A stretch of 64,000 nucleotides of DNA from Candidatus Iainarchaeum sp. (GCA_030688545.1 JAUYHT010000002.1:135891-199890); one strand, 5' to 3'. Positions 13,264 to 62,592 are shown, counted from the stretch's first letter. Notes: generated by a model not told the origin, from the letters alone. A program made the numbers and translations.

Positions 13264-13902
13264 TTAAATATCTTTCTCCTTTCCCGCCTGCGCCTTGGGA
13301 AACACCCTTCCTTTTGCCCAAGAGAGGGGGATAATCCCGTATTCCTTTGAATCTCTGCTCTCGTTGGGATTGTCCCCTCGGACTAAAATATACCCAGGAG
13401 GAATGTTATATCCTTGGTATTTGAGCTGGACCTGCAATGCATGAAATTGGTTCCTTTCCTTTCGATAGATCCGATCGCCTATTCGGAGAGTGTCATCCGA
13501 GAATTCCACCATCTCTCCAGGGACCCCCATTACCCTTTTTACCAACTGGATGCGATTCCCAAAAGCGTTCACATACACTAATCCAACCACCTGATCAGGG
13601 AGGATGAGATGATTCTCATAGTATCCATCCCAGAGCCATGCTTTATCCCCATCTTGAAAAGCGGGAAACATGGAATCTCCGACAATATTGATTTCGATAC
13701 AATCCGGATTCGTCTCTTGACATGCGTTTTCCGCGCTGGCGACATAGGAGAATAGGGTGATTAGCACCAGGATAAGGATGAGGATTGAGATGAGGAATGC
13801 GGCGTAGAAGATGGGCTTGGCCCAGCGGCGGAGATGATGCATTTTCTTCCCGTGAACATCCACGTCGAAGAACTCCCGCTCGTGCTTAGGACGGATGGGC
13901 AT
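13264..13902 (-). CDS. lepB: Signal peptidase I (S26 family, bacterial Ser/Lys type).
   Basis: It carries GDSMFP (box B serine), VKRVMGVPGE (box D lysine) and GDNPNESRDSKEYG (box E), plus an N-terminal TM anchor. Confidence 0.8.
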   Translation of the reverse strand: MPIRPKHEREFFDVDVHGKKMHHLRRWAKPIFYAAFLISILILILVLITLFSYVASAENACQETNPDCIEINIVGDSMFPAFQDGDKAWLWDGYYENHLILPDQVVGLVYVNAFGNRIQLVKRVMGVPGEMVEFSDDTLRIGDRIYRKERNQFHALQVQLKYQGYNIPPGYILVRGDNPNESRDSKEYGIIPLSWAKGRVFPKAQAGKEKDI

Positions 13903-28020: not shown

Positions 28021-30453
28021 ATGGTTGATATGGCAAGGAAAATGGGAATCATTGGCCTACTCCTTTTACTGGCTACCAGTGGGTTCGCCCTGGCCGCCGA
28101 TCCCCCGAGTGGGTTGGATGCCACGCTCGCGTCGATGGTGACGAATGGATATGATGCCATTTATTCCAATCGGGGATGGTCCTCCTTGTATGACTTGCCC
28201 CAGACACGATTTTCGTTAGACGAAGCGGATTTTTATGATAATGCCGCCGACTTTGGAGAAACCGGGATGTATGGCCTTGCGCTGCGTCAATTGGCCAACC
28301 CGGAGTATGACCCATTCGGTATTTCGGAGGATGTAGAAACGCAAACTAAGAAATTGGGAGCCAATATCCTACCGTGGATTTGGGTTCCCGATACGGAAGA
28401 TTTTGGGACGGCGGATGGGGCGTTAATGCCCAATGGGGGATTGGCCTATGTTCGGCCGGAGGTGCATGGCATTGTTGTCACGGACAACCAGTGCCGGGAT
28501 GCCACGCTTCCCTATAATGAATATAGCATTCCTATTGACACGGTTAACAAGATCCCATTCTCCAACCTGCAAGGGATTGCGGGAACAGGGATCGCCTTAC
28601 TTAATGCCGCCCAGAAGGATGAGACGAATCGAGATTCCTATTTGCGCATTGCCGAGCGCATGGGAACCCTCATTCTGGACAGCATGATTACTCCCGAAGG
28701 GGAAACATTTGGATTTCACCCCAATGAGATAATGGACAAATATGATAAAAGTATTCCCATCGGGATGGTGCCGTACCAATTCGCCCTAAAAACCACGGGG
28801 GAAGACACCCTTTCCTGTGGGGATGGGGGGACCATCAAACTCAATGAGAACCGGAAGACCTATCTGGCTTTGGCGGGGGTGTTCCTACAACACTTGCATG
28901 CCCAAACCGGGGAAGAAAAATTCGAGCGCGGCGCGAACTATATCTCGGAAGCCATCCTCTCCCAATTACAGTGCGACGGGAGCTTTGTGGATTACACCCG
29001 TTGGGAGGGGCCGGGGATCTATTCATACGTATGCAAACCCACTGATGGGAGCGCGGAATACGAAGCCTATCCTTCCAATGTGGCCGTGAGCCAGACGCAG
29101 GGATGGATAATTGATTCGGCGCTCATCCTCAACCTCTTGCGTCTGAAAGATGACACCATTTATGTGTCGGATAAAGAATACAAGCGGTCGGTGCACTATT
29201 TCTTGGAGCTTGAGGAAACCGAAACGGGATCGGGATTCACTCGAAATGGAGACCCCATCAAGTACGCGAGCTATTCATTGGACATCCAAAACAGAGCGTA
29301 TGGCCAGGTGCTCTTGGCCAATGTTTTCCTCCGCGCCTCCTGCCAGGAAAACGATTCTGGTATTGAATCCCGGCTCCAGACGAAAGCCTATCAATTAATC
29401 AACGGGGCCAACACCGTTGTTCCCGCGGAATTGGATTACAAGATCGGCAGTGCCTTCATAGGAGACCCGGGGTTGCATGCGTATGCGCTCTCGGCCGCTG
29501 CGGACTCATGGAAAATAATCACGCGGGGATGTGAGGATTGCCGTGATAACGATGGCGACGGATACATTGATGGGGGGTGCGCCGGGGATATTGTGAAATA
29601 CGATTGCAACGACAACGATGCCTCCATCCACCCAGGGGCAGAGGAGGTATGCGATATGGTGGACAACGATTGCGATGGCGTGGTTGATAATGGATTCGAT
29701 TTTGATGGGGATGGTTATAGTGTGTGCAGCGAACCGGCGGACTGCAATGATGACGAATCGGATATTTATCCCGGGGCACCCGAAATAATCGACCAGAAGG
29801 ATAATGATTGTAATCTCATCCCAGATGATACGGGGGTGCAGATCCATGTCACTAATGATTTGAACGCGGGAATAGGGAACGTGGATATTCTCCTCGTGGA
29901 TTATGGGAACGCCTGCATCAATGCGTTCAGCGATTTGGTGGGGAGTTTCGACCTGATTCGAAATAAGTGCACCATCGTCAAAACCTGCACCACGGATGAA
30001 AATGGGAGCTGCCTCATGTCCCTTACTAATAGTGGAAAATTCCAAGCATTGGGGGTGGTGGGGGATAAGGGATTGGAATCCGGACCCATCGAGTTCTCCC
30101 CGGGAGGACGGAATGAGGTTTCTCTCCAGGCCAAAGGGTTTGACGATAGCGCCGTGGATCAGAATGATAGTCGGTTGGCCAACAACCCCTCTCTGCTGGA
30201 ATCAAACCCCTATTTGGGATTGGGACTTCTCGTGGTGGTATTGATCATCCTCGGGCTGGGAGGACTCTATATGCACAAGACCGGGAGACTGGGTGCAAAA
30301 GGAAAAGGGAATAGTAGCCCATCGGCCTTGGCCACCCCAAAGAAAGGGTTTTCATTTCCCAAGATTACATTGCCAAAAATCCCCAAAGTAAAAATTTCAG
30401 TTGAGCCGGAAAAGAAAGGAAAAGTGTTGGGAAAATCGGATGGGAAGAAGTGA
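28021..30453 (+). CDS. Large cell-surface protein with MopE-like DNDCD metal/Ca-binding repeats and a C-terminal TM anchor.
   Basis: It has a signal peptide (IIGLLLLLATSGFALA), a unique N-terminal domain of about 480 aa, then CxDxDGDGY...DCNDNDASIHPGAxExCDxVDNDCDG repeats (putative metal-binding motif family). The C-terminus is LGLGLLVVVLIILGLGGLYMHK plus a basic tail. Confidence 0.6.
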   Translation: MVDMARKMGIIGLLLLLATSGFALAADPPSGLDATLASMVTNGYDAIYSNRGWSSLYDLPQTRFSLDEADFYDNAADFGETGMYGLALRQLANPEYDPFGISEDVETQTKKLGANILPWIWVPDTEDFGTADGALMPNGGLAYVRPEVHGIVVTDNQCRDATLPYNEYSIPIDTVNKIPFSNLQGIAGTGIALLNAAQKDETNRDSYLRIAERMGTLILDSMITPEGETFGFHPNEIMDKYDKSIPIGMVPYQFALKTTGEDTLSCGDGGTIKLNENRKTYLALAGVFLQHLHAQTGEEKFERGANYISEAILSQLQCDGSFVDYTRWEGPGIYSYVCKPTDGSAEYEAYPSNVAVSQTQGWIIDSALILNLLRLKDDTIYVSDKEYKRSVHYFLELEETETGSGFTRNGDPIKYASYSLDIQNRAYGQVLLANVFLRASCQENDSGIESRLQTKAYQLINGANTVVPAELDYKIGSAFIGDPGLHAYALSAAADSWKIITRGCEDCRDNDGDGYIDGGCAGDIVKYDCNDNDASIHPGAEEVCDMVDNDCDGVVDNGFDFDGDGYSVCSEPADCNDDESDIYPGAPEIIDQKDNDCNLIPDDTGVQIHVTNDLNAGIGNVDILLVDYGNACINAFSDLVGSFDLIRNKCTIVKTCTTDENGSCLMSLTNSGKFQALGVVGDKGLESGPIEFSPGGRNEVSLQAKGFDDSAVDQNDSRLANNPSLLESNPYLGLGLLVVVLIILGLGGLYMHKTGRLGAKGKGNSSPSALATPKKGFSFPKITLPKIPKVKISVEPEKKGKVLGKSDGKK

Positions 30454-51138: not shown

Positions 51139-51912
51139 ATGCCACGCGCCACTAGGAAACCCTATGCCGGAACGAAAATAGGTTTTGATCGAGGCCCTGG
51201 TCGATCTGTCACTAAACCCAAGGCCCCCACCCTTGTCCCTGCACTCGGCCGCACACGTCTCTGGATCCGCCGCTGGATGCACCCTTTCAAATCCCAACGT
51301 CAAAGGGCGCGTGCCATTTTGGCCACGCAGAAGAATGACCGCCTGAAAGCTAATCCCTATGGAAAAACCGCCATCGCCCGGGCCGAAGGGAAGGTAACTC
51401 GTATCAAAGAAAAGAGAGATACGCGAGCGAGTCAATGGTCCATCGCCCACGCACGGAAAAAAACATCCATCTTACTCAAACCCTTCTGGGTCGCGCGGGT
51501 GGCCTTTCTGACCCGCCGCCACCGGCGCTTAAGCAAGCTGGCGGAGGCCATGACGGGGTATGCTCGTAATGTGAAGAAACGCTATGATTTGAAAACCAAA
51601 ATAGCCATGCGCCGGAATACGACGCGCCGGGATAAGGCATTCCACTATTTGGAAACGTTCAAAGAGAAGATCCGATTGGACCTGCTCGGAAAAACAAGAA
51701 CAGTGATAGCCAACATGGGAACCACTACCAAACAGAAAAAACGAATAACCCAAAATACTCGCGCCGGCACCCAATTGCTCCTGACCTTCAATCAAACGGC
51801 CTCCTTGATCGAATACGAGACCATCCTCCTTGCCATGGAACACGCCATTCAAAAAGACGATTTGACGCTCGCTGAAGGACTTTCTACCCTGCTCCTGGAT
51901 ATCCAGGATTGA
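51139..51912 (+). CDS. Highly basic hypothetical protein. The coding status is uncertain.
   Basis: The 257-aa ORF is Arg/Lys/Thr-rich with no recognisable family. It fills the gap between xpd and the surface-protein cluster. Confidence 0.3.
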   Translation: MPRATRKPYAGTKIGFDRGPGRSVTKPKAPTLVPALGRTRLWIRRWMHPFKSQRQRARAILATQKNDRLKANPYGKTAIARAEGKVTRIKEKRDTRASQWSIAHARKKTSILLKPFWVARVAFLTRRHRRLSKLAEAMTGYARNVKKRYDLKTKIAMRRNTTRRDKAFHYLETFKEKIRLDLLGKTRTVIANMGTTTKQKKRITQNTRAGTQLLLTFNQTASLIEYETILLAMEHAIQKDDLTLAEGLSTLLLDIQD

Positions 51913-51940: not shown

Positions 51941-53596
51941 ATGCCTCCTGGGAGGATGCAACCCACCCATTGGGTCATCATCGGAATATTTCTCCTCGCG
52001 GGAGCGCTGGTGGCTATTCTCCCGGGAACAGAAGCTCAGGTCCAAACCACTTCCTCCTATTTCGCCCCTATCCCGCCGGAGGTGGAGGGAAAATTCCTTG
52101 TCACCCGCCCGGGAACGCCAATTTATGATGTCCTATTGGCTATGACCCAACCCACCTACAAGGGAGCGGGATTCTTAGGCTACACCTCTTCCGGAAAACT
52201 GTTTGCGGTTGTGCATAATGGCGAAAAGTTGATTGGCTTGGACGTGTTAACCCCCATTATTCGGCCCACTGCCTATGTTTACGAATATGCTCCCGAATCC
52301 AATACGTTCTGGGAACTCGATTGTTCACTTGGAGGAACACATGGACGAATCATACTCGTCACGGAACAAACGAAGCATGCATTTACAGGCCCAGCCACCA
52401 TCACCCCCGGCATGACATTAGACACCCTCATCCAACAGAAATGCACCGATTCGGCTGGCGCCCTGGACCGGGAAGCCGAATATTCTTTCAATGAGGACCT
52501 GTATTATATCGGTGAACAATATTTCAAGGATGCCCTACCCATCGGGAATCGTATTTTCTCAGATCTTATCGCGCAAGGAAAACTTTCCACTACTCATCTC
52601 ACGTCCGAATCCCTGATCGTAACCAATGCGATCATCACGGATGTCATCAAAGATGTCCCCAAAACCCTCAATTGCCCGACCCCGAAGATAATGGCGGGTG
52701 GTCAGGGCGGAATTTGGACCATTACGGCTACTTCCAATGCAGAACATACGCCAGCCAATGCTTTTTGTATTCAAGCCGATGGAAATCCCGCGTATTTGTT
52801 GGAAGTGTGGCGGTATGCCCCTTTTGAAACCAACCAGCCGCAAGTTGATTATTTCAAAGTGGGTATGCGATTGTACACCCGCACCGGAGGCCAATGGAGC
52901 AATATTTGGAGTGATGCTATTTTCACAGAACGTTATTCAATTATCGGGGGAAACCCTGTACTCGCATCCCTAGACCCCAATGTCATTCAAACGGTGCCGG
53001 TAAACCAGCCAGTCCTGGTCCAGCCTGGAAATCGTTTCGTCCGATTCGTAAATCAAGAGAGGGGGGACGTGAATATTTCATATTCCATTAATCCGACGAC
53101 CGGTATTTCCATTACAAAAATAGACGCATCCGAACGATTGTCGCAAACTACGTCCAATACGGTTTTCCGTTTCAAATTCGAATCTCAAAGTGAAGCCCTA
53201 ATCAGGGAAATATTGGACCTTCCGACCTATGATATCTATGGGGACCCGGAAAATAAGATGGCGGTGTACCTCCAAAAAACCAGCACCACCCGCGAATCCG
53301 AAAAAGACAAGATGATTTCTGCGACGGTTGATGGCGTTCCTCATTTCGTGACCAATAAAGACATTACTATAGGAAAATACACGCTCATCATTCAAGTAAC
53401 CGGAGCGAAAGAAACCAAGATCACTGAAATAGGGATTGGGGAAAATGATTTATCCCCATTGACAGGGGCCCTAACCAGCGATATCCATATCCTCTCCCTG
53501 CTTGAGCCACTGACCCCAGACCCTTGTGGGAAGTGTGACAGTCTATTAGCCTGCTTTGCGTGCGTGAATGCCAAAGTGGTGGAAGAATACGAGTGA
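51941..53596 (+). CDS. Secreted/surface hypothetical protein (N-terminal anchor, Cys-rich C-terminal tail).
   Basis: It has an N-terminal TM/signal (WVIIGIFLLAGALVAIL), a β-rich ectodomain of about 500 aa, and ends PDPCGKCDSLLACFACVN. Confidence 0.5.
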   Translation: MPPGRMQPTHWVIIGIFLLAGALVAILPGTEAQVQTTSSYFAPIPPEVEGKFLVTRPGTPIYDVLLAMTQPTYKGAGFLGYTSSGKLFAVVHNGEKLIGLDVLTPIIRPTAYVYEYAPESNTFWELDCSLGGTHGRIILVTEQTKHAFTGPATITPGMTLDTLIQQKCTDSAGALDREAEYSFNEDLYYIGEQYFKDALPIGNRIFSDLIAQGKLSTTHLTSESLIVTNAIITDVIKDVPKTLNCPTPKIMAGGQGGIWTITATSNAEHTPANAFCIQADGNPAYLLEVWRYAPFETNQPQVDYFKVGMRLYTRTGGQWSNIWSDAIFTERYSIIGGNPVLASLDPNVIQTVPVNQPVLVQPGNRFVRFVNQERGDVNISYSINPTTGISITKIDASERLSQTTSNTVFRFKFESQSEALIREILDLPTYDIYGDPENKMAVYLQKTSTTRESEKDKMISATVDGVPHFVTNKDITIGKYTLIIQVTGAKETKITEIGIGENDLSPLTGALTSDIHILSLLEPLTPDPCGKCDSLLACFACVNAKVVEEYE

Positions 53597-53689
53597 CCCT
53601 AAAATATCCTGAATAGGCGAGGGCCCTAAAAAAAAATTATTTGGATACCCTAACACGATTTTTTTCAAATTTTATTTGTGGACGTAAAT

Positions 53690-55384
53690 TTACCGCTTTC
53701 TCTTCTTCCGAACAATCTTTGGCCCTTTTTCTTCCTCTTCTGTGGGCAGTAGGGTTGTGCTGTCGTCGGCTTCCTTTTTTTCTTCAATCTCTTTCATGTC
53801 CGGTCCGCCTTCTTCCAGGGGACGGATGTGGTGCTGCTGGATGGTTTTGTCCACTTTCTCGTCGCGCACCCGGATACCAGAAGAAGGGGATCGGTATAGC
53901 TTTGCCCTAACAAAATCCCGCACGCGAGAGGAGAAGATGAGCACGAGGAGGATAAGCAGCAATATACCCAAGAATATGGGACCCGGGGTCAAAACGAAAA
54001 GTCCTGAAAAGGGATCCCGCTCTTCCCCTTGGAATTCAATGGGAACCCGGTCCACTTCCACGCCATCGTTAAACACCTGAAGGTCGAACGACCCGGATTC
54101 CCCTTCGGGGCGGATGACGTCAATGGTGACATTCACTCCGGATTGGAAGGGAATAGAGGTCCGGGTTGGAGATATGCGAACGTCCCATCCTTGCGGAATA
54201 GAGGTGGGAATAATGAACACATTCCCCCAGGGTGAATCCGTGGCATTGGATATGAGTATCGTTTGGGTCACGCGTTCTGTTTCTCCCGGAATGATTTTGG
54301 TTGGAATAGTTTGCACCGTGAAATGCACTTGCGCATCGAAATCCGGGGACACGATGAATAAGGATTCACTTCTCAGGCCTGGGGAATCGGATCCAAAAAT
54401 AGTGATAGGAATGCTCAAACTGGATTTGGGAGGAACCCGGATGGAGGGAGACGAGACTTTAATGCGGGGAGAGGAAGTGGTAATCAGCACATCCAATTCA
54501 TTCCATTCGGTGTTCTCAATGGTGATATAGGATGCCACGGTTCCCTGTTCTTCCACTTCATACAGGAGAGTGGGTAAGGCCACCAAGGCATGGGACACTT
54601 TATCCACGCGCACCAAAACAGTGCCCAGGAAAGTCGTATCTTGCGTTACCAGGTTCCGCGCGCGAAGGGAAAGGGAGTAGGTGTCGAAAGGGGTTCGGGT
54701 ATCCGTGGAAACCTCAATCACGGACTGCACCCTTTCCCCGGGTTGCACGAAGCGATGCACTCCCCCCTGAATGCGGGCTTTAAAATGGACAGGTTGCTCG
54801 GTGAATTCAATACGATAATCCGTGGCCGACCCCTGGTTCACGAATGAAACACTAAACAGCTCGGTATCGTTCCGATTTAACTCGATGTCCTGTTCCGAAA
54901 ACACGATTTGGGTGATGAAAGGGGCTAATGTGGAGTCAGGGGTGGTGCGGAATTCAGTAAAACCGGAAGGCATTACCTTAACCGCATACGTTTGGGGAAA
55001 CGCATACCGTGCGCCCCCGATAAACGCCTCCACGAATAAGGTAATGGTGTGGTCCCCCGGAGGGGCGTTGGGGGCTGCTTTGATAGTCAGATGCCGGGTG
55101 AATGAAAAAGGACTCGTGATGGGGTGCAACTGACCATCCAATTGGAGAAAGGGGTGGGCTTGCGGGGTGAAAGAAAGAGTTACGGCTTCATCCCCCTGAA
55201 TAACTATGCTCACGTCAATGGGTAACGAGGTGCCGGGCTTCAACTGGAAAGCATGGGAAGACGAGGACACATCCACGAATGCAGTGGCCTGGACTTGGGG
55301 GGCCATCATGAGGAGGAGGATTCCCACTCCCACTAATGCCACGCGGAGGGGGTGATATTTTATCCATTTGAAAAAAGATTTCAT
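53690..55384 (-). CDS. Cell-surface protein with repeated β-sandwich-like segments and a C-terminal TM anchor plus an acidic/basic tail.
   Basis: It has a signal peptide (MKSFFKWIKYHPLRVALVGVGILLLMMAPQVQA) and a C-terminus TPGPIFLGILLLILLVLIFSSRVRD...KKRKR, reminiscent of a PGF-CTERM-like anchor. The start was set at the internal Met. Confidence 0.55.
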   Translation of the reverse strand: MKSFFKWIKYHPLRVALVGVGILLLMMAPQVQATAFVDVSSSSHAFQLKPGTSLPIDVSIVIQGDEAVTLSFTPQAHPFLQLDGQLHPITSPFSFTRHLTIKAAPNAPPGDHTITLFVEAFIGGARYAFPQTYAVKVMPSGFTEFRTTPDSTLAPFITQIVFSEQDIELNRNDTELFSVSFVNQGSATDYRIEFTEQPVHFKARIQGGVHRFVQPGERVQSVIEVSTDTRTPFDTYSLSLRARNLVTQDTTFLGTVLVRVDKVSHALVALPTLLYEVEEQGTVASYITIENTEWNELDVLITTSSPRIKVSSPSIRVPPKSSLSIPITIFGSDSPGLRSESLFIVSPDFDAQVHFTVQTIPTKIIPGETERVTQTILISNATDSPWGNVFIIPTSIPQGWDVRISPTRTSIPFQSGVNVTIDVIRPEGESGSFDLQVFNDGVEVDRVPIEFQGEERDPFSGLFVLTPGPIFLGILLLILLVLIFSSRVRDFVRAKLYRSPSSGIRVRDEKVDKTIQQHHIRPLEEGGPDMKEIEEKKEADDSTTLLPTEEEEKGPKIVRKKRKR

Positions 55385-55415
55385 TCTTTCTCCAACCCAG
55401 AAGGAAGAAACTATT

Positions 55416-57254
55416 TTAGTCCGAAATGAGGAATGCATCCGGTTCCCCCCGCCCCTTCCGCACCCACACGGGTTGCGGCCCTTGGGTACGTTTCCCTAGC
55501 CAATAGATTCCCAATAATATCAGGATGAGCCCGCCCAACCAAATCCCCCGCTCTCCTACGAAGGCCACGAGGCCACTCAGGAAGCCCGTAAATCCAGCAT
55601 CGGTATGGATGCGCAATGGCACCCGTTGGGTCCCGGCCTGGGAATGGAGGGCTAACTGACGCTCAACCACTCCGGTAACTGGGGAATCGGCCTCGCGGAA
55701 CAAGGTTACCTCCATGGTTTTAGTTTCCAGGGGCTGAATGATGGTGGCGGCACCACGGGGAACCAAGAAGATTCCTTCACGCGCATCCCCGGGAAGGGTG
55801 AAGCGCACCTCGGAAACGGCCGTGGAATTAGGGTTATGGACGGAAATGCTGATGGTGCGGGTTTCCCCCTGTTGAAGGGAAACATCAATGGGATAACTCA
55901 CGACCTGCAAGGGTTCCAACGGGGGTCCTCGGGCGGGTTCCACCATGAAGCTCAGGGGGATGGTGGCCGTCACGGATCCTTGGGCCTGAATAAAAGTGGT
56001 AACTTGACGCACGGGGGTGTCGATTTGGGCTTCTACTCCCACCAAAACGAGGAGGCTATTTCCTTTAGTGAGGATGAACTGTTGCGGGACAAACGTAACA
56101 GTGATACCAGGAATGGCATCGGCGACCATCATGGAGACGGACTGGTCTATATCCCCATCATTAACCACGAGAAGTTGGAGGAAGGCCTGTTCCCCTTTCC
56201 GAATATGGGTAAAGCCTTCTATTTGTTCCATTGTCAATCGCGAGAGGGGCAATACATCCACTTCCAATACCACCGTCTGGGAATACGTGGAAGTCATTCC
56301 CGTGATTTCCACGCGCTGGCGACCGGGTTCCACGTGTTTACCCGGGGTTAGGGCCAACTGGAGCGTCGCTTTCTGCCTCGGTCCTATTTGGACTTTCACG
56401 TTATCTGCGGCCACCACCGAAATAGGGATGAGCGTGACATCCTGGGGAACATCGGTGAGATTCTCCACCGTAATAGGTACGAAGGTGGTCTCCAATTTTG
56501 GAAGCTGTGGAACTCTAGTTGGAAGGGAAATGGAAATGGTTTTGATGACGGGCGCGGGGCAATCGCTCACGTTCACCATGAAGGGACGCTGGACCCAGAT
56601 GTCATTCGTTTGAACGAATAAACGCCCCTCATAATCTCCTTCCTGGGAGGGCGCCACGTTCAATACAATGGATACGAATTCCCTTTCTCCTCCCGTGAGA
56701 CGGATCTCCGGAGGGTTCACTTGAGGCATGAGCAAAGGGTGCGAGGCGGAGATATTGGCATCGACGATGCGCCCGGTGCGGTTCTGGATCTCCGCGGAAA
56801 TCGTTCCCACATAGTCATTGGCGCACACGCTTTTCTCGAACGGATTCACGATCAGGAAAGGATTGCTTCCCACGTAAACGGTAAAAGGGATGCGGGTGAT
56901 CTGACCTTCCGCGTCCAGGATTATTTCGGCATCATACGTGCCAGAGCGGGCATCCTCGGTGGCAATAAGCTCAACCCCAAAACGGAATTGCTCGTAGGGA
57001 GATACATTCACTCGGGTGAAGGCGGGTTTCAACTGGATGAATGGCGAAGACGTGTCCACCCGGATACGCACGTCATGAGAACGAAAATCCACATTGTCGA
57101 TAACCAAAGGAACGCTCATACGGTCTCCGGAGAGCAAAGAGAAATTAGAGGGACTCTCGATGAATCCACGGAAAGGAAAGGCGTGGGCGGTTCCCGCTAT
57201 TAGAATGAAGGCGAAAAGCCCAAGGATGATCCATCTAAAAAAATTGTTTGTCAT
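55416..57254 (-). CDS. Cell-surface protein (paralogous architecture: signal peptide, β-rich repeats, C-terminal TM anchor).
   Basis: It has the signal MTNNFFRWIILGLFAFILIAGTAHA and a C-terminus GIWLGGLILILLGIYWLGKRTQ. The composition is Thr/Val/Pro-rich and β-strand-like. Confidence 0.55.
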   Translation of the reverse strand: MTNNFFRWIILGLFAFILIAGTAHAFPFRGFIESPSNFSLLSGDRMSVPLVIDNVDFRSHDVRIRVDTSSPFIQLKPAFTRVNVSPYEQFRFGVELIATEDARSGTYDAEIILDAEGQITRIPFTVYVGSNPFLIVNPFEKSVCANDYVGTISAEIQNRTGRIVDANISASHPLLMPQVNPPEIRLTGGEREFVSIVLNVAPSQEGDYEGRLFVQTNDIWVQRPFMVNVSDCPAPVIKTISISLPTRVPQLPKLETTFVPITVENLTDVPQDVTLIPISVVAADNVKVQIGPRQKATLQLALTPGKHVEPGRQRVEITGMTSTYSQTVVLEVDVLPLSRLTMEQIEGFTHIRKGEQAFLQLLVVNDGDIDQSVSMMVADAIPGITVTFVPQQFILTKGNSLLVLVGVEAQIDTPVRQVTTFIQAQGSVTATIPLSFMVEPARGPPLEPLQVVSYPIDVSLQQGETRTISISVHNPNSTAVSEVRFTLPGDAREGIFLVPRGAATIIQPLETKTMEVTLFREADSPVTGVVERQLALHSQAGTQRVPLRIHTDAGFTGFLSGLVAFVGERGIWLGGLILILLGIYWLGKRTQGPQPVWVRKGRGEPDAFLISD

Positions 57255-57258
57255 GGGT

Positions 57259-57798
57259 TCACATCCGGTTCCGCAAGCGGAATATCAATGAAATGCCTAA
57301 TACGATGACGATGAGTATGAGGAGGGCATCCACTATTTGCGCCCCGTCACCTAACGAAAGAGCAGCCAAACCGGCAAAGGGGGAAATAGGGGTATCCTCT
57401 TTGGACGCCTGAATGATGATTTCGCGTGAATCGTCCCCGGCTATTACCCGAATACGGCCGAAGTACGTATCGCCTTCCCGCAAGCCCTCATTGGGGAATA
57501 AGGAGAACTGGATGACCTTCAATTCCCTCGGGGCCACGTGGATGGAGGTAGGGTCACCTGCGAAGGCGAGTGAAAAAGGGCCATCGGCGATGAAACTAGG
57601 TTGGATGGATTCCGTCCCGGTATTGGTTACGGCAATGGGATAAGGAAAAGGCTCATTTCCCGTGAAAACAACCGTCGAGGGGGCATTGACCTCGAATCCC
57701 CGCACAAAAGTAAGGGCGAGAAAGAAGGCTAAGACGATGAGGACCAATTTCAGCTCATTAGGGATGAGGGCTTTTCTCTTGGGCATGGGAGTATTCAC
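57259..57798 (-). CDS. Small surface protein with a C-terminal TM anchor (first gene of the three-gene minus-strand surface operon).
   Basis: It has signal/TM (LKLVLIVLAFFLALTFVRG), a single β-sandwich-like domain, and a C-terminus IVDALLILIVIVLGISLIFRLRNRM. Confidence 0.45.
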   Translation of the reverse strand: MNTPMPKRKALIPNELKLVLIVLAFFLALTFVRGFEVNAPSTVVFTGNEPFPYPIAVTNTGTESIQPSFIADGPFSLAFAGDPTSIHVAPRELKVIQFSLFPNEGLREGDTYFGRIRVIAGDDSREIIIQASKEDTPISPFAGLAALSLGDGAQIVDALLILIVIVLGISLIFRLRNRM

Positions 57799-57879
57799 TT
57801 ATTCATGTGAATAACTTAAATAGGTATTCTGTTCCTTATAAATGGGGTAGATTCCTTAAAAAAGCCTATTTTTCCCCTT

Positions 57880-58335
57880 TTGCCTATGCTCGACCTCTTT
57901 ATTGCCTCCAATGACATCCTTGCCCAAATCATTCATTTCGATGAAGACGTCTCGCATTCCCACCAAGCGGCCGGGCTGGAAAAAACCTATCCTATCGTGA
58001 AGACGATTGTCTGTTATACGGGGGGAAAAGACCCTTTGATCTTGGCTATCCTCGAAGCCACCCAAAAGGTTGATTTCCAAAAAATAAAAGCCCTTCTCGG
58101 GGTCTCCGAGGTTCGGCTCGCGACCCCGGAAGAGGTGCTTAACGCGACAGGGTATGAAGTAGGTGGGGTGCCGCCCATCAGCATCTATGGCAGCCCCACT
58201 CTAATAGACCCGGGAGTATTGACGCATCCCTGGGTCGCCTGCGGGGGAGGGGACACCCACTCCCTGCTCAAGATCCAGAGCGCGGACATCCTGAAATGGG
58301 CATTCGAACCCCGCGTCGAACCTATTGCGAAATGA
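57880..58335 (+). CDS. YbaK/ProX-family aminoacyl-tRNA deacylase (Cys-tRNA(Pro)/Ala-tRNA(Pro) editing).
   Basis: It has GYEVGGVPPI and ACGGG motifs of the YbaK/ProRS-INS editing domain. Confidence 0.75.
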   Translation: MPMLDLFIASNDILAQIIHFDEDVSHSHQAAGLEKTYPIVKTIVCYTGGKDPLILAILEATQKVDFQKIKALLGVSEVRLATPEEVLNATGYEVGGVPPISIYGSPTLIDPGVLTHPWVACGGGDTHSLLKIQSADILKWAFEPRVEPIAK

Positions 58336-58475: not shown

Positions 58476-58862
58476 TCAACGTCCATAATATCCATAATAC
58501 TGAAATGACGGGGTCGTGGTGTGAATGGGAACGGGGGCATATCCTGCCACATAGTGACCCGGATAGGACGCGCCGTACGCATAGGAAGTTCCATACGGGG
58601 CATAAGAAGGATACATATTGTACGAGGGATACGCATAGATCCGCCCGCCCCCGAGAGTGGGATAGCCCAGATGATTGTACATCGGGTACACCCAGTTACC
58701 ATAGGCGGCGGGCCGGGAGTAGGCGCTCACCAGAACCTGGTTGGAATTCCAGGTATCAGTATAATAGAATCCCCAGGCCCACGCCGAGCTGGCTAGGGTG
58801 AGGAAGACGAGGACTACTATGGCGATGCGCAGGTGCATGAGTATATTCGTACGCACTAGCAT
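58476..58862 (-). CDS. Secreted Tyr/Gly/Pro-rich low-complexity protein.
   Basis: It has a signal peptide (MHLRIAIVVLVFLTLASSAWA), then YPxY/YGxS-rich sequence (PMYNHLGYPTLGGGRIYAYPSYNMYPSYAPYGTSYAYGASYPGHY). Confidence 0.4.
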   Translation of the reverse strand: MLVRTNILMHLRIAIVVLVFLTLASSAWAWGFYYTDTWNSNQVLVSAYSRPAAYGNWVYPMYNHLGYPTLGGGRIYAYPSYNMYPSYAPYGTSYAYGASYPGHYVAGYAPVPIHTTTPSFQYYGYYGR

Positions 58863-59436: not shown

Positions 59437-62400
59437 TCAATCCCCTGATCGTCTATTAAACGCATTCTTTGGGGGGACGATTTTAGCATAGCCCACGTGT
59501 TCCCAATACTGGAGCATCTTCACCAAATACGTGGCGCCGATGAACCCCGCGAACTCGATGATGGCGAAAATGAACCCCATGGCAAGAGAGAGAAATAACC
59601 CAATGAACAAGGGCAATCCCATGAAGATGCCCGCGAGCACGGTGCGGATGACCCGCTCGCGCTGCTGCTGCGAAAAGGGTATCACCCCCTGCTGATGGAC
59701 TTGGCGATACAGATTATCCGATCCTATTCCAGCCAGGGCGCAGAATGCGATGAAGATGGCAAACGCCATGGGCCCGGCGATGGCGATAAGATTGGAGGTA
59801 AATAGCACGAGCGCACGAATCCCGCCGAAGATGGCATCCACCACCGTCCGGGGAATGTATAGGGGGGTGCCCACAAGGACAAGGTTGCCTTCCTCATCAA
59901 AACGGAACACGCCCGAGAATATTGGTCGCTCGGATGGAGGGGGGGTGGTCACGCTCCCCCCAGGTAGGCTAAATGAAAAGGTGTGCGTGCGCTCATTTCC
60001 TAACCCATCCATGGTTTCCACCACTAATTCCCCTCCCGTGGTGGGGGTGGATAAGGGAATGGTGCAGAGAATTGAGGGTTTGTCTCCCCCGCCCTCCACG
60101 CAGGAAGACGATAACGCACTCCCCCCCATCCGCACCGTTTGAAGTTGGGGAATGGAAAAATCCGTCAAAGTGAATGAGAGCGACGTCACGGGTGATTCGA
60201 TAACGCCACTCGGAAAAGGATTCACTATTTCCGGGCCAATATAATCCAGCACCACGTCTTCCAATAATTGCACGGCATTCTCGCGTCCATCCTCGCGCGC
60301 CGTAACCACTAAATCATACTTCCCTTCTTTCAGATCGGGGGAAGGGGTAAAGGGGATGGTGCATGAGTAAAGGGACCGCGTGCCCGTGCAACCTGTTTTC
60401 ACCCCGCGATGATCGGCGACGGGAAAGGATGCCAATTCAAATGGGTGTCCATCTGGTGAAAAAAATGCCACCATCACATCCAATGTTCCAGCAAAGGACG
60501 AATCAAATAGGCTCATCCGGAATGAATGGGGATTAGTTCCCCCCCATGACGAATTAGGTAAAGGATCATGAACCTGCAGACTGAGGGCGCTCACATCCAA
60601 GCGGATAGGGTTGGCACTCGAATCGATGGATTCCCCACCATCGCTATCTTGTAGGCGCATCACCACATAGTATTCCCCATCCGGGGCCACGGCGCCCGAG
60701 GAGGGGGCATACAACGTTACATCCACGCGGCAGGGTTGGGAAATGGAAAAATCTGTTCCCGCACAAATCCCTAATCCCCCGGAATTCTGCCAATGGGATA
60801 AAGGGGCGTGTTCGATCAGGGGGTATGTCAGTTCCCCCGGGTTGGGAGAAAGGAAGATGGAGACATACCCCTCCTCGGAGTCCCCATCCTGGGCGAGGAA
60901 AGAGACGTTTTCATTGTATGTGGTTGTAATATCCCCGGGTCGCACCCACTGCGCGGGCGATGCGGGATGCGTGACGGTTACCCGGGGTTGAACATTGGTT
61001 TCGTCCAGGGCATCACTTGAATACAGGTAGGCAATCCCATCCCGGTGAGCGGTGAAAAAGAATGTTTCATCCCCACTTGAAGCTGTCATCCCATCTGAGA
61101 GGCCAGTGAGAATCAGGGCTTGCGCATCCGGCCCGCTGATTGAACGGGGAGAAATGACAGTATTCTGCCCATCCAAGGAAGCGAAAATACTCATGGGATT
61201 CCGATCGGAAGGCTTGCCGGTTAACAGGTGCAAGCGCGTCCGTGAATTTGGATGAGTCACCAAACCATGGATAGCTACTTCTTCCAATCCTTCCCCATAT
61301 GCCTGGGCGACTCCATTCCAAATGGTGCGGGTGCAGTTGGATGCGCATTCCCATCCCACCGCATTATTTCCTTGGCGCGCGCCCATGAACCATACGCCCC
61401 CTCCAAAATCCAAAATGGGCTCGACAAAATTCCCGCTAGCTGGGAGAATCGCATGAGGGATTGTCCATTCATTGGCGGCGGGATCAAACTGCGCGAAATA
61501 CAACATCGTGGACCCCACCCCTCCCGGAACGGGATAATCCACCCACCCCGCGACCAATGCCCCATCCGAGGATAATGCTAGCGTGGGCGAACGCGGATTA
61601 CCATTACCTCCCCCCACTAGGATATCGGGACCATCCGATGGGGGTATCCAATTCACATGGGTGGCGGTGCAGTCCGCGAACGCGGCGCACGCATAATGAA
61701 ATATTCCCTGGAGTCGCGTGACCAGGTTGGATTGTGCATCGTCGAACATCACATGCAACGCGTCCCCCCGAACCACCAGTTTAGGTTGCGAAAAGGAATA
61801 ACGCCATCTCCCATTCTCGGTGGCGACAAGGGGATTTACGATACTAATGGCTTTGGACCAATCAGACCCCGAGGTGCAAGCACGGGAGGAAGGACATTGG
61901 CTGTAATAGATGGCTGACTTCCCATTAGTATTATCGACGAGGGAAAACACCAGATGACTATTTCCATTAGGCGTTCGGGCCAGGGCGGGATGACGAGGAG
62001 TAACCGAACCTAATTCTAGATTCGCAGGCAACGCATCTTTGGTAATAAGCGTTGACAGGGGAAAGGGCGGGGAGAAAGAAGCCCCTCCATCATCAGTACG
62101 ACGGAGCATCGCTCCTTGAGTCGTCTCATAGGCCACAAGTAAGCTCCCGCTCCCCAAATGGATTACCTTGGATTGGCGGAAATCCTGATCCGGCAAAACC
62201 ATGGTGCCCCCACTCACGAGATACTGTTCGAATCCCACCACGCGAGAAGAATTAGGAAGAGGAGCACACGTGCCGGTAGCGAGGTTACAACACGCCCCAT
62301 ACACGGGGGCCCACCCCAAGTGCGCGGGAGTCGCGGGGCCGCTGCAGGAAAGGATGGGGGATAACGATCCTCCCGAGGTGCAAAGCGAGGACGTCGTACG

Positions 62401-62592
62401 CGAGCAGGGAAGGGAATCACAGACCACTAATGTTTGGAACGCCCCCTCCTCCGGGCAAACGGCTTGGAAAGAAGTAAACCCCCCCATTGGGGAAGGAGAA
62501 TCGTTAGTAAAGCTACCGGATTGGCCAAATACCCCAGGGGTTAATAGAAGAATAACGATGAGACCAAACCCCCATTTTCCCCAGCCACGCAT
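59437..62592 (-). CDS. Giant (1051 aa) secreted surface protein with a C-terminal multi-TM anchor.
   Basis: It has a signal peptide (GFGLIVILLLTPGVFGQ), a long β-rich and Cys-containing ectodomain, and a C-terminal 100 aa with 3-4 hydrophobic helices. Confidence 0.6.
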   Translation of the reverse strand: MRGWGKWGFGLIVILLLTPGVFGQSGSFTNDSPSPMGGFTSFQAVCPEEGAFQTLVVCDSLPCSRTTSSLCTSGGSLSPILSCSGPATPAHLGWAPVYGACCNLATGTCAPLPNSSRVVGFEQYLVSGGTMVLPDQDFRQSKVIHLGSGSLLVAYETTQGAMLRRTDDGGASFSPPFPLSTLITKDALPANLELGSVTPRHPALARTPNGNSHLVFSLVDNTNGKSAIYYSQCPSSRACTSGSDWSKAISIVNPLVATENGRWRYSFSQPKLVVRGDALHVMFDDAQSNLVTRLQGIFHYACAAFADCTATHVNWIPPSDGPDILVGGGNGNPRSPTLALSSDGALVAGWVDYPVPGGVGSTMLYFAQFDPAANEWTIPHAILPASGNFVEPILDFGGGVWFMGARQGNNAVGWECASNCTRTIWNGVAQAYGEGLEEVAIHGLVTHPNSRTRLHLLTGKPSDRNPMSIFASLDGQNTVISPRSISGPDAQALILTGLSDGMTASSGDETFFFTAHRDGIAYLYSSDALDETNVQPRVTVTHPASPAQWVRPGDITTTYNENVSFLAQDGDSEEGYVSIFLSPNPGELTYPLIEHAPLSHWQNSGGLGICAGTDFSISQPCRVDVTLYAPSSGAVAPDGEYYVVMRLQDSDGGESIDSSANPIRLDVSALSLQVHDPLPNSSWGGTNPHSFRMSLFDSSFAGTLDVMVAFFSPDGHPFELASFPVADHRGVKTGCTGTRSLYSCTIPFTPSPDLKEGKYDLVVTAREDGRENAVQLLEDVVLDYIGPEIVNPFPSGVIESPVTSLSFTLTDFSIPQLQTVRMGGSALSSSCVEGGGDKPSILCTIPLSTPTTGGELVVETMDGLGNERTHTFSFSLPGGSVTTPPPSERPIFSGVFRFDEEGNLVLVGTPLYIPRTVVDAIFGGIRALVLFTSNLIAIAGPMAFAIFIAFCALAGIGSDNLYRQVHQQGVIPFSQQQRERVIRTVLAGIFMGLPLFIGLFLSLAMGFIFAIIEFAGFIGATYLVKMLQYWEHVGYAKIVPPKNAFNRRSGD

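Follow-up and report, generated by a model that had tools for sequence, protein, structure and literature searches.

Three syntenic genes for membrane-anchored immunoglobulin-like proteins specific to Iainarchaeota: candidate structural components of the cell envelope

A 64,000-nucleotide (nt) stretch of Candidatus Iainarchaeum sp. DNA (GCA_030688545.1, JAUYHT010000002.1:135891-199890; hereafter the window, to whose first letter all positions refer) carries on its minus strand three consecutive genes for proteins of 179, 612 and 564 amino acids (aa), which are faced by a convergent gene for a secreted protein of 551 aa. We interpret the three minus-strand genes, below called the trio, as one transcription unit of paralogues that encode membrane-anchored proteins built from immunoglobulin (Ig)-like domains, that are specific to the Iainarchaeota and that would serve as structural components of the cell envelope; taken as a whole, this interpretation seems to us evenly poised between holding and failing. 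To our knowledge, no member of the Iainarchaeota has been cultured, and what is known of their envelope comes from predictions only. Lineage-specific surface genes that are kept in strict synteny are concrete candidates for the determinants of this envelope.

The locus was analysed by reading-frame calls, hydropathy scans, BLASTP searches, family profiles and a structure model. All four open reading frames (ORFs) of a preliminary description of the locus, which had proposed a tight three-gene operon and a convergent fourth gene, were recovered with the same boundaries. Gene 1 (57259-57798, minus strand) encodes 179 aa, or 175 aa from the ATG at 57786; gene 2 (55416-57254, minus strand) encodes 612 aa; gene 3 (53690-55384, minus strand) encodes 564 aa, or 582 aa from an upstream ATG at 55438. 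The gaps between them measure 4 nt (57255-57258) and 31 nt (55385-55415). For gene 3 the inner ATG at 55384 appears to be the better start, because it is preceded by GGAG, avoids an overlap with the upstream gene and was chosen by an independent gene caller as well. The convergent gene (51941-53596, plus strand) encodes 551 aa (546 aa in NCBI). From comparison with related contigs, the ORFs can be taken as real genes rather than chance ORFs, because orthologues with 30-38 % identity keep the same order in related Iainarchaeota. In the hydropathy scans each protein of the trio has one N-terminal hydrophobic segment and one C-terminal transmembrane (TM) segment, while the 551-aa protein has the N-terminal segment only. 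The enrichment in threonine, valine and proline pointed out previously is present and is modest (T 5.6-8.7 %, V 7.3-10.9 % and P 7.4-7.8 % in the cluster proteins versus 4.7, 6.3 and 5.3 % in the neighbouring XPD helicase).

The three genes look co-transcribed. The divergent intergenic region upstream of gene 1 (57799-57879, read on the minus strand) contains promoter-like elements for the three-gene unit, with the TATA-like sequences TTTATAAGG and CTATTTAAG located about 25-45 nt upstream of the GTG and ATG starts of the 179-aa gene; these elements may serve as the promoter. The convergent intergenic gap at the opposite end (53597-53689) holds T-runs on both strands, namely A9 on the plus strand (T9 in the direction of the minus-strand unit) and T7 for the plus-strand gene. 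These runs resemble archaeal-type terminators and could function as such. No long T-run was found by reading the sequence inside the three-gene unit. The single promoter-like region, the tight spacing and the single terminator-like end would thus fit a common transcript of the 179-, 612- and 564-aa genes.

Most structural information comes from the 612-aa protein, for which an AlphaFold2 model was built from the four available sequences. The model, which is confident at the level of single residues (predicted local distance difference test, pLDDT, 79.4; predicted template modelling score, pTM, 0.37), starts with a signal helix at residues 3-22, the signal peptide covering residues 1-25 with the cleavage-type site AHA/FPF (the slash marks the cut). 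Five tandem Ig-like beta-sandwich domains follow (residues about 26-130, 131-232, 233-337, 338-445 and 446-552), and the C-terminal part consists of a short helix (557-565), a TM helix (569-590) and a cytoplasmic tail of 22 aa with a conserved PVW motif. In Foldseek searches against the PDB, the model matched tandem Ig-like repeat proteins: ciliary central-pair proteins of the ASH/HYDIN type (E down to 2e-26), macroglobulin/complement macroglobulin domains and the S-layer protein SbsB (E 2e-14, a generic match only). As identities in these matches were 9-15 % and global template modelling scores were low, the model suggests a likeness in fold and tandem arrangement and to no specific family.

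The two other proteins of the trio can be related to the 612-aa protein. In the 179-aa protein a Sec signal peptide is followed by a single Ig-like domain, a juxtamembrane segment rich in Gly and Ser, and a C-terminal TM helix with the short basic end RLRNRM; when the profile of its family (alignment of nine orthologues) was compared by hhalign with that of the 612-aa family, it matched the last of the five domains together with the anchor (probability 95 %, E 2.7e-8). The 564-aa protein starts with a signal peptide and four Ig-like domains, to which a NEW3-like domain is added; its TM helix (in a hydrophobic span from about residue 458 to 493) is followed by some 70 aa of charged tail. Its family profile aligns with that of the 612-aa family over 360 columns (hhalign probability 87 %, E 3.9e-6), collinear with the signal peptide and the first four domains. 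On the basis of these two hhalign links, the 179-, 612- and 564-aa genes are best described as old, remote paralogues in tandem, whose products have one, five, and four or five domains, respectively. This kinship is visible only to family profiles, as direct BLASTP among the four cluster proteins gave nothing significant.

The additional domain of the 564-aa protein (residues 371-428; 54101-54274, minus strand) resembles the NEW3/NPCBM_assoc Ig domain (PF10633) with a score of 22.8 bits, which is below the Pfam cut-off of 24.4; the 612-aa protein reaches 12.7 bits. PF10633 matches three of the seven members of the 564-aa family, with a best E value of 3.4e-7 in an orthologue, and is the only Pfam signal of this family. 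It comes from an insertion of about 90 aa that is present in the window and in the related loci L008 and L009 and absent in L004, L005, L007 and P0006. The earlier statement that the proteins belong to no nameable family holds at curated thresholds, at which none of the cluster proteins was matched; below threshold, only NEW3/NPCBM_assoc, ASH and choice-of-anchor T were encountered, the latter (NF041740) with 22.3 bits versus a cut-off of 70 and over 54 residues only. When the four family profiles were compared with all PDB sequences, the best E value was 0.03 and no S-layer protein was found. Signal peptides, beta-sandwich domains of Ig type and C-terminal TM helices, as described at the outset for the three minus-strand proteins, are thus borne out by hydropathy, AlphaFold, Foldseek and hhalign.

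The C-terminal anchors are conserved across the trio. In the 612-aa protein the juxtamembrane motif and the TM anchor (55485-55598, minus strand) read G-F-x-G-x-L-S/T-G-L-V-x-F-x-x-E followed by the hydrophobic helix, and the family alignment has invariant columns at G554, G557, L559, G561, L562, V563, F565, E568 and G574. Behind this conserved Gly-rich segment and the helix, the tails of the family are 13-25 aa long and share the cytoplasmic PVW motif. The juxtamembrane/TM modules of the three families appear, from the alignments, to be homologous to one another. It had been proposed that the last gene has a PGF-CTERM-like arrangement, in which case the trio would be archaeosortase substrates whose C-terminal helix is cleaved off while the protein is transferred to a lipid. 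In all three families the TM helix is indeed directly preceded by a motif of small residues (P/x-F/I-S/T-G-F/L), and the 179-aa protein terminates in a TM helix plus short basic tail, an ending restricted to its family. The proposal nevertheless did not survive comparison with the orthologues: the residues before the helix are TPGPIF in the 564-aa protein of the window and SGVFSS, SGVSSS, SGIARP, SGVGKP or VGAFSS in its six orthologues, all of which lack the PGP, and the family alignments of the 612-aa and 179-aa proteins contain no PGF. The tails are long as well, with about 70 aa after the helix in the 564-aa protein of the window and 45-75 aa in complete orthologues, and the conserved cytoplasmic motif that follows the helix in the 612-aa family argues for a retained TM helix. 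An NCBIfam scan of the four cluster proteins at E <= 0.1 gave no CTERM sorting-signal model, and no exo- or archaeosortase was found among the ten multi-TM or otherwise membrane-associated ORFs scanned within the window. A subset of Euryarchaeota is described as having archaeosortases (PMC6098224). We therefore regard processing by an archaeosortase as highly improbable.

The N-termini are of the classical Sec type in the alignments and not of the type IV pilin-like (class III) kind. The AxA-like sites read behind the hydrophobic core are AHA/F, VRG/F, VQA/T and TEA/Q. The window also has a gene for a type I signal peptidase (13264-13902, minus strand; Peptidase_S26, E 1.4e-15), which is likely to be the enzyme that processes the Sec signal peptides of the cluster proteins. 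Members of the 612-aa family agree in their mature N-terminus, FPF or FPY after the AxA site, and this feature together with the Ig-like fold could be expected of surface-fibre subunits whose Ig-like domains exchange donor strands during assembly, as happens in archaeal threads, cannulae and bundling pili. Such a role is extremely improbable for the trio, in which every protein keeps a C-terminal TM anchor; moreover, the N-terminal strand is modelled within a complete first domain of the 612-aa protein, the signal peptides are not class III, and no assembly genes are located nearby.

The cluster proteins are listed by NCBI as hypothetical proteins of a metagenome-assembled genome termed 'Candidatus Diapherotrites archaeon', and the window contains archaeal-type housekeeping genes for a KaiC-like ATPase, an XPD/Rad3 helicase, an Lhr-type helicase, a family X DNA polymerase and enolase. 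When one genome per GTDB species was scanned with the 612-aa family, six loci were found, all in uncultured archaea and one of them in the complete 1.05-Mb Candidatus Iainarchaeum chromosome (CP064981.1). On the strength of these loci the host, previously described as a small-genome archaeon, can be assigned to the phylum Iainarchaeota as a small-genome groundwater archaeon of the DPANN group. A word-based search of 5.8 billion proteins yielded four members for the 612-aa protein and two for the 564-aa protein, and a metagenome scan yielded three groundwater contigs, one of which, a 6019-bp contig from Hainich H51, was already included in the genome scan. Judged by the searches made, the families are very narrow and confined to the Iainarchaeota lineage.

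Within this lineage the genes are strictly syntenic. Every related Iainarchaeota contig that is long enough has the order 1051-aa gene, 128-aa gene, YbaK-like gene (on the opposite strand), 179-, 612- and 564-aa genes, convergent gene, XPD and KaiC-like gene. The conserved unit hence exceeds the four genes originally delimited and also takes in a 1051-aa multi-TM protein and a 128-aa Tyr/Gly-rich secreted protein. The surface proteins of this block share 26-38 % identity across loci, compared to 48-82 % for the adjacent housekeeping genes.

For the function of the trio we favour the following model. The three proteins would be exported by the Sec pathway and be freed of their signal peptides by signal peptidase I, after which the C-terminal TM helix would stay in the cytoplasmic membrane, so that the trio would represent type-I membrane proteins. 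Because this helix would be retained, the chains of one (179-aa protein), five (612-aa protein) and four or five (564-aa protein) Ig-like domains would project outward, and a five-domain rod could, according to the model, reach about 15-20 nm. By analogy with anchor subunits of the SlaB type, the trio may be spacers or pillars, anchored in the membrane, that make up or secure an outer protein layer, probably in partnership with the 1051-aa, the 128-aa Tyr/Gly-rich and the secreted 551-aa proteins. A structural role in the envelope is favoured because the inter-domain linkers are conserved, the rod is evenly conserved, the genes are single-copy and strictly syntenic, and the anchor module is common to the trio. 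In the 612-aa family, invariant residues cluster at the linkers (TVYVGSNPF, DCP...KTIS.LP and VLP; the alignment also has a Cys pair, C144 and C232) and the identity per domain is even at 0.36-0.46 (0.42 in the first domain), with no hypervariable tip to the rod. This pattern would suit a rigid structural element.

The same data bear on the possibility that the trio are adhesins that bind a host or partner cell or a substrate, with the Ig chain presenting a binding surface away from the membrane. DPANN archaea often live as episymbionts, with surface proteins that are believed to make the contact, adhesins are commonly laid out as tandem Ig-like domains on a TM anchor, and the trio evolves faster than the neighbouring housekeeping genes; in addition, the 1051-aa neighbour has weak BNR/Asp-box-like and Ig-like signals and might bind glycans. 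The 612-aa family has, however, no hypervariable membrane-distal domain, and neither the family scans nor the 612-aa model revealed a recognisable lectin, integrin-like or enzymatic head domain. Single-copy, strictly syntenic genes beside housekeeping genes are also more typical of core envelope parts than of a variable set of adhesins. We consider the adhesin explanation a serious rival, though a rather doubtful one.

Several observations weigh against the structural role that we favour. Tandem Ig-like domains are generic and are equally typical of adhesins. The 612-aa model was built from four sequences only, and at a pTM of 0.37 neither its arrangement of domains nor the rod length that follows from it is reliable. 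The trio lacks the coiled-coil stalk of SlaB, the 612-aa model having just the 9-residue helix 557-565 before the TM helix, and contains 0, 7 and 3 N-glycosylation sequons compared to 13-17 in the S-layer candidates of Nanobdella. Finally, a different protein, A0A2G9N319 (1039 aa), has been proposed as the S-layer protein of the Iainarchaeota; it was not linked to any gene of the block, and its accession is not among the HMMER clusters obtained with the 1051-aa protein.

The 1051-aa surface protein (59437-62592, minus strand; ORF call and TM scan) has an N-terminus rich in cysteine (21 Cys), carries Asp-box-like motifs, and combines a large extracytoplasmic region with a multi-TM domain at the C-terminus. 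A full HMMER search of 1.84 billion representatives with this protein gave 16 matches, the named ones being hypothetical proteins of Diapherotrites/Iainarchaeum, and a few family members have weak matches to Big_13, BNR_2 and YLATT. A juxtamembrane sorting motif common to the trio and the 1051-aa family was considered and rejected, as the 'FSG' of the window is not conserved in the 1051-aa family. The best-conserved part of this family is the C-terminal multi-TM domain (VEVTGPSAxAIFxGLCxLAGIASD ... LQYYxTFGFKP), and this, together with the strict synteny of the trio with the 1051-aa gene and the mutual homology of the conserved juxtamembrane/TM modules, would be compatible with the trio being extracytoplasmic accessory subunits of a membrane complex assembled around that domain, for example a capture or uptake apparatus. 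Between the two, though, lie the YbaK-like gene, which has the opposite orientation, and a further, small gene, and the 1051-aa gene is for this reason presumably not co-transcribed with the trio; furthermore, family scans detected no transporter, ATPase or secretion component in the block. A complex of this kind is in our view distinctly unlikely.

The small gene encodes the 128-aa secreted protein (58476-58862, minus strand), a Tyr/Gly/Pro-rich low-complexity protein with orthologues at the equivalent position in L002, L004, L005, L007, L008 and L009. It is basic (isoelectric point 9.2), terminates in YYGYYGR and has no family match. The YbaK/ProX-like aminoacyl-tRNA editing gene (57880-58335, plus strand; PF04073, E 2e-24) is situated on the opposite strand amid the surface-protein block and is kept in all related loci.

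The convergent 551-aa protein had been counted as the fourth member of a cluster of anchored proteins. This description applies to the three minus-strand proteins; the 551-aa protein is of the secreted type, with an N-terminal signal peptide and without a TM anchor, and has no detectable kinship to the trio. Its Cys-rich tail (53525-53563, plus strand) does contain the four cysteines noted before (C529, C532, C538 and C541; CGKC...CFAC). In the alignment of positional orthologues, which are present in L004, L007, L008 and L009 and have 616-643 aa and 16-23 % identity, C532 and C538 are invariant and a C-terminal C-x5-C...Y motif is shared. In the word-based search the protein matched itself alone. 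Comparison of its family profile with the 612-aa and 1051-aa families by hhalign indicated no relationship, Pfam scans of five members revealed no family, and the profile gave no credible match in the PDB; an AlphaFold model from the single sequence was unusable (pLDDT 35.8). Going by these comparisons, the 551-aa protein appears to be unrelated to the trio yet part of the conserved neighbourhood.

A more far-reaching suggestion, which we consider fairly unlikely, is that the conserved block of about 11 kb is the complete module of a new, Iainarchaeota-specific multi-component envelope or host-contact apparatus. Its parts would be the 1051-aa propeller/Ig/multi-TM protein, the Tyr/Gly-rich secreted protein, the three paralogous Ig-rod anchors, whose lengths are graded, and the Cys-tailed secreted protein. 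Anchors with one, five and four or five domains would fix defined distances from the membrane to the outer layer, with the 551-aa protein as the outermost or a secreted partner. The trio and the other proteins of the block are the ones most likely to define the cell surface of the Iainarchaeota and any contact with a partner.

Some further genes in or near the block were recorded. Between XPD and the 551-aa gene, a 257-aa protein rich in threonine, lysine and arginine (51139-51912, plus strand; isoelectric point 11.5) has no credible family; it is absent at that position in L004 and L007, and L008 has a different basic protein of 228 aa there. In L008 (15293-15940, minus strand) and L009 (15336-15977, minus strand), the genes for the convergent secreted protein and for XPD are separated by an additional gene, which is absent from the window and whose product of 213-215 aa has an N-terminal TM segment and ends with CTGGI. 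Elsewhere in the window, an 810-aa surface protein (28021-30453, plus strand) has a signal peptide, a C-terminal TM segment and MopE-type putative metal-binding motifs (PF11617, E 5e-15).

Among known systems, the PGF-CTERM proteins, which are substrates of archaeosortase A, resemble the trio in that they are surface proteins in which small residues precede a hydrophobic helix at the C-terminus; the trio differs by having no conserved PGF, long conserved tails and a lineage outside the Euryarchaeota. The 612-aa model finds its best structural counterparts in Ig-like domains of the ASH and HYDIN-VesB-CFA65 type (PF15780, PF22544), to which sequence matches are faint. These domains belong to eukaryotic ciliary or bacterial secreted proteins, and the likeness appears to concern only the fold and the tandem layout. 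The 'uncharacterized membrane proteins' of COG1470 (NEW3, PF10633) share with the trio a layout of signal peptide, Ig-like domains and C-terminal TM helix, the domains being of the CARDB/NEW3 class in COG1470 and matching PF10633 weakly in the 564-aa family, and the same label, 'uncharacterized membrane protein', is attached by JGI to one member of the 612-aa family. They differ in that the signal remains below the Pfam cut-off in the window proteins and concerns one domain of one of the three families. Genes of COG1470 often adjoin genes of ATP-binding cassette transporters, and no transporter gene adjoins the cluster block.

The closest parallels are provided by anchors of the SlaB type. According to a survey of S-layers, TM helices and co-expressed accessory proteins are usual modes of anchoring in archaea (10.1101/2024.05.28.596244). 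SlaB-like anchors have been proposed for another DPANN archaeon, Nanobdella aerobiophila, in the form of three Ig-fold proteins that have a TM helix at the C-terminus (MJ1_0299, MJ1_0309 and MJ1_0707). These proteins and the trio have in common a Sec signal peptide, several Ig-like or beta-sandwich domains and a single C-terminal TM helix, and the trio would also share with them co-transcription with other envelope genes; the four to five Ig-like folds of the Nanobdella proteins correspond in number to those of the 612- and 564-aa proteins. There is no detectable sequence similarity, and the Iainarchaeota possess three tandem paralogues of one, five and four or five domains, for which no SlaA-like lattice partner was identified. 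What is new here is the lineage-specific family. The kind of protein, a chain of Ig-like domains on a TM anchor, is already familiar as a common archaeal pattern, and for this reason the trio adds a family to it rather than a principle.

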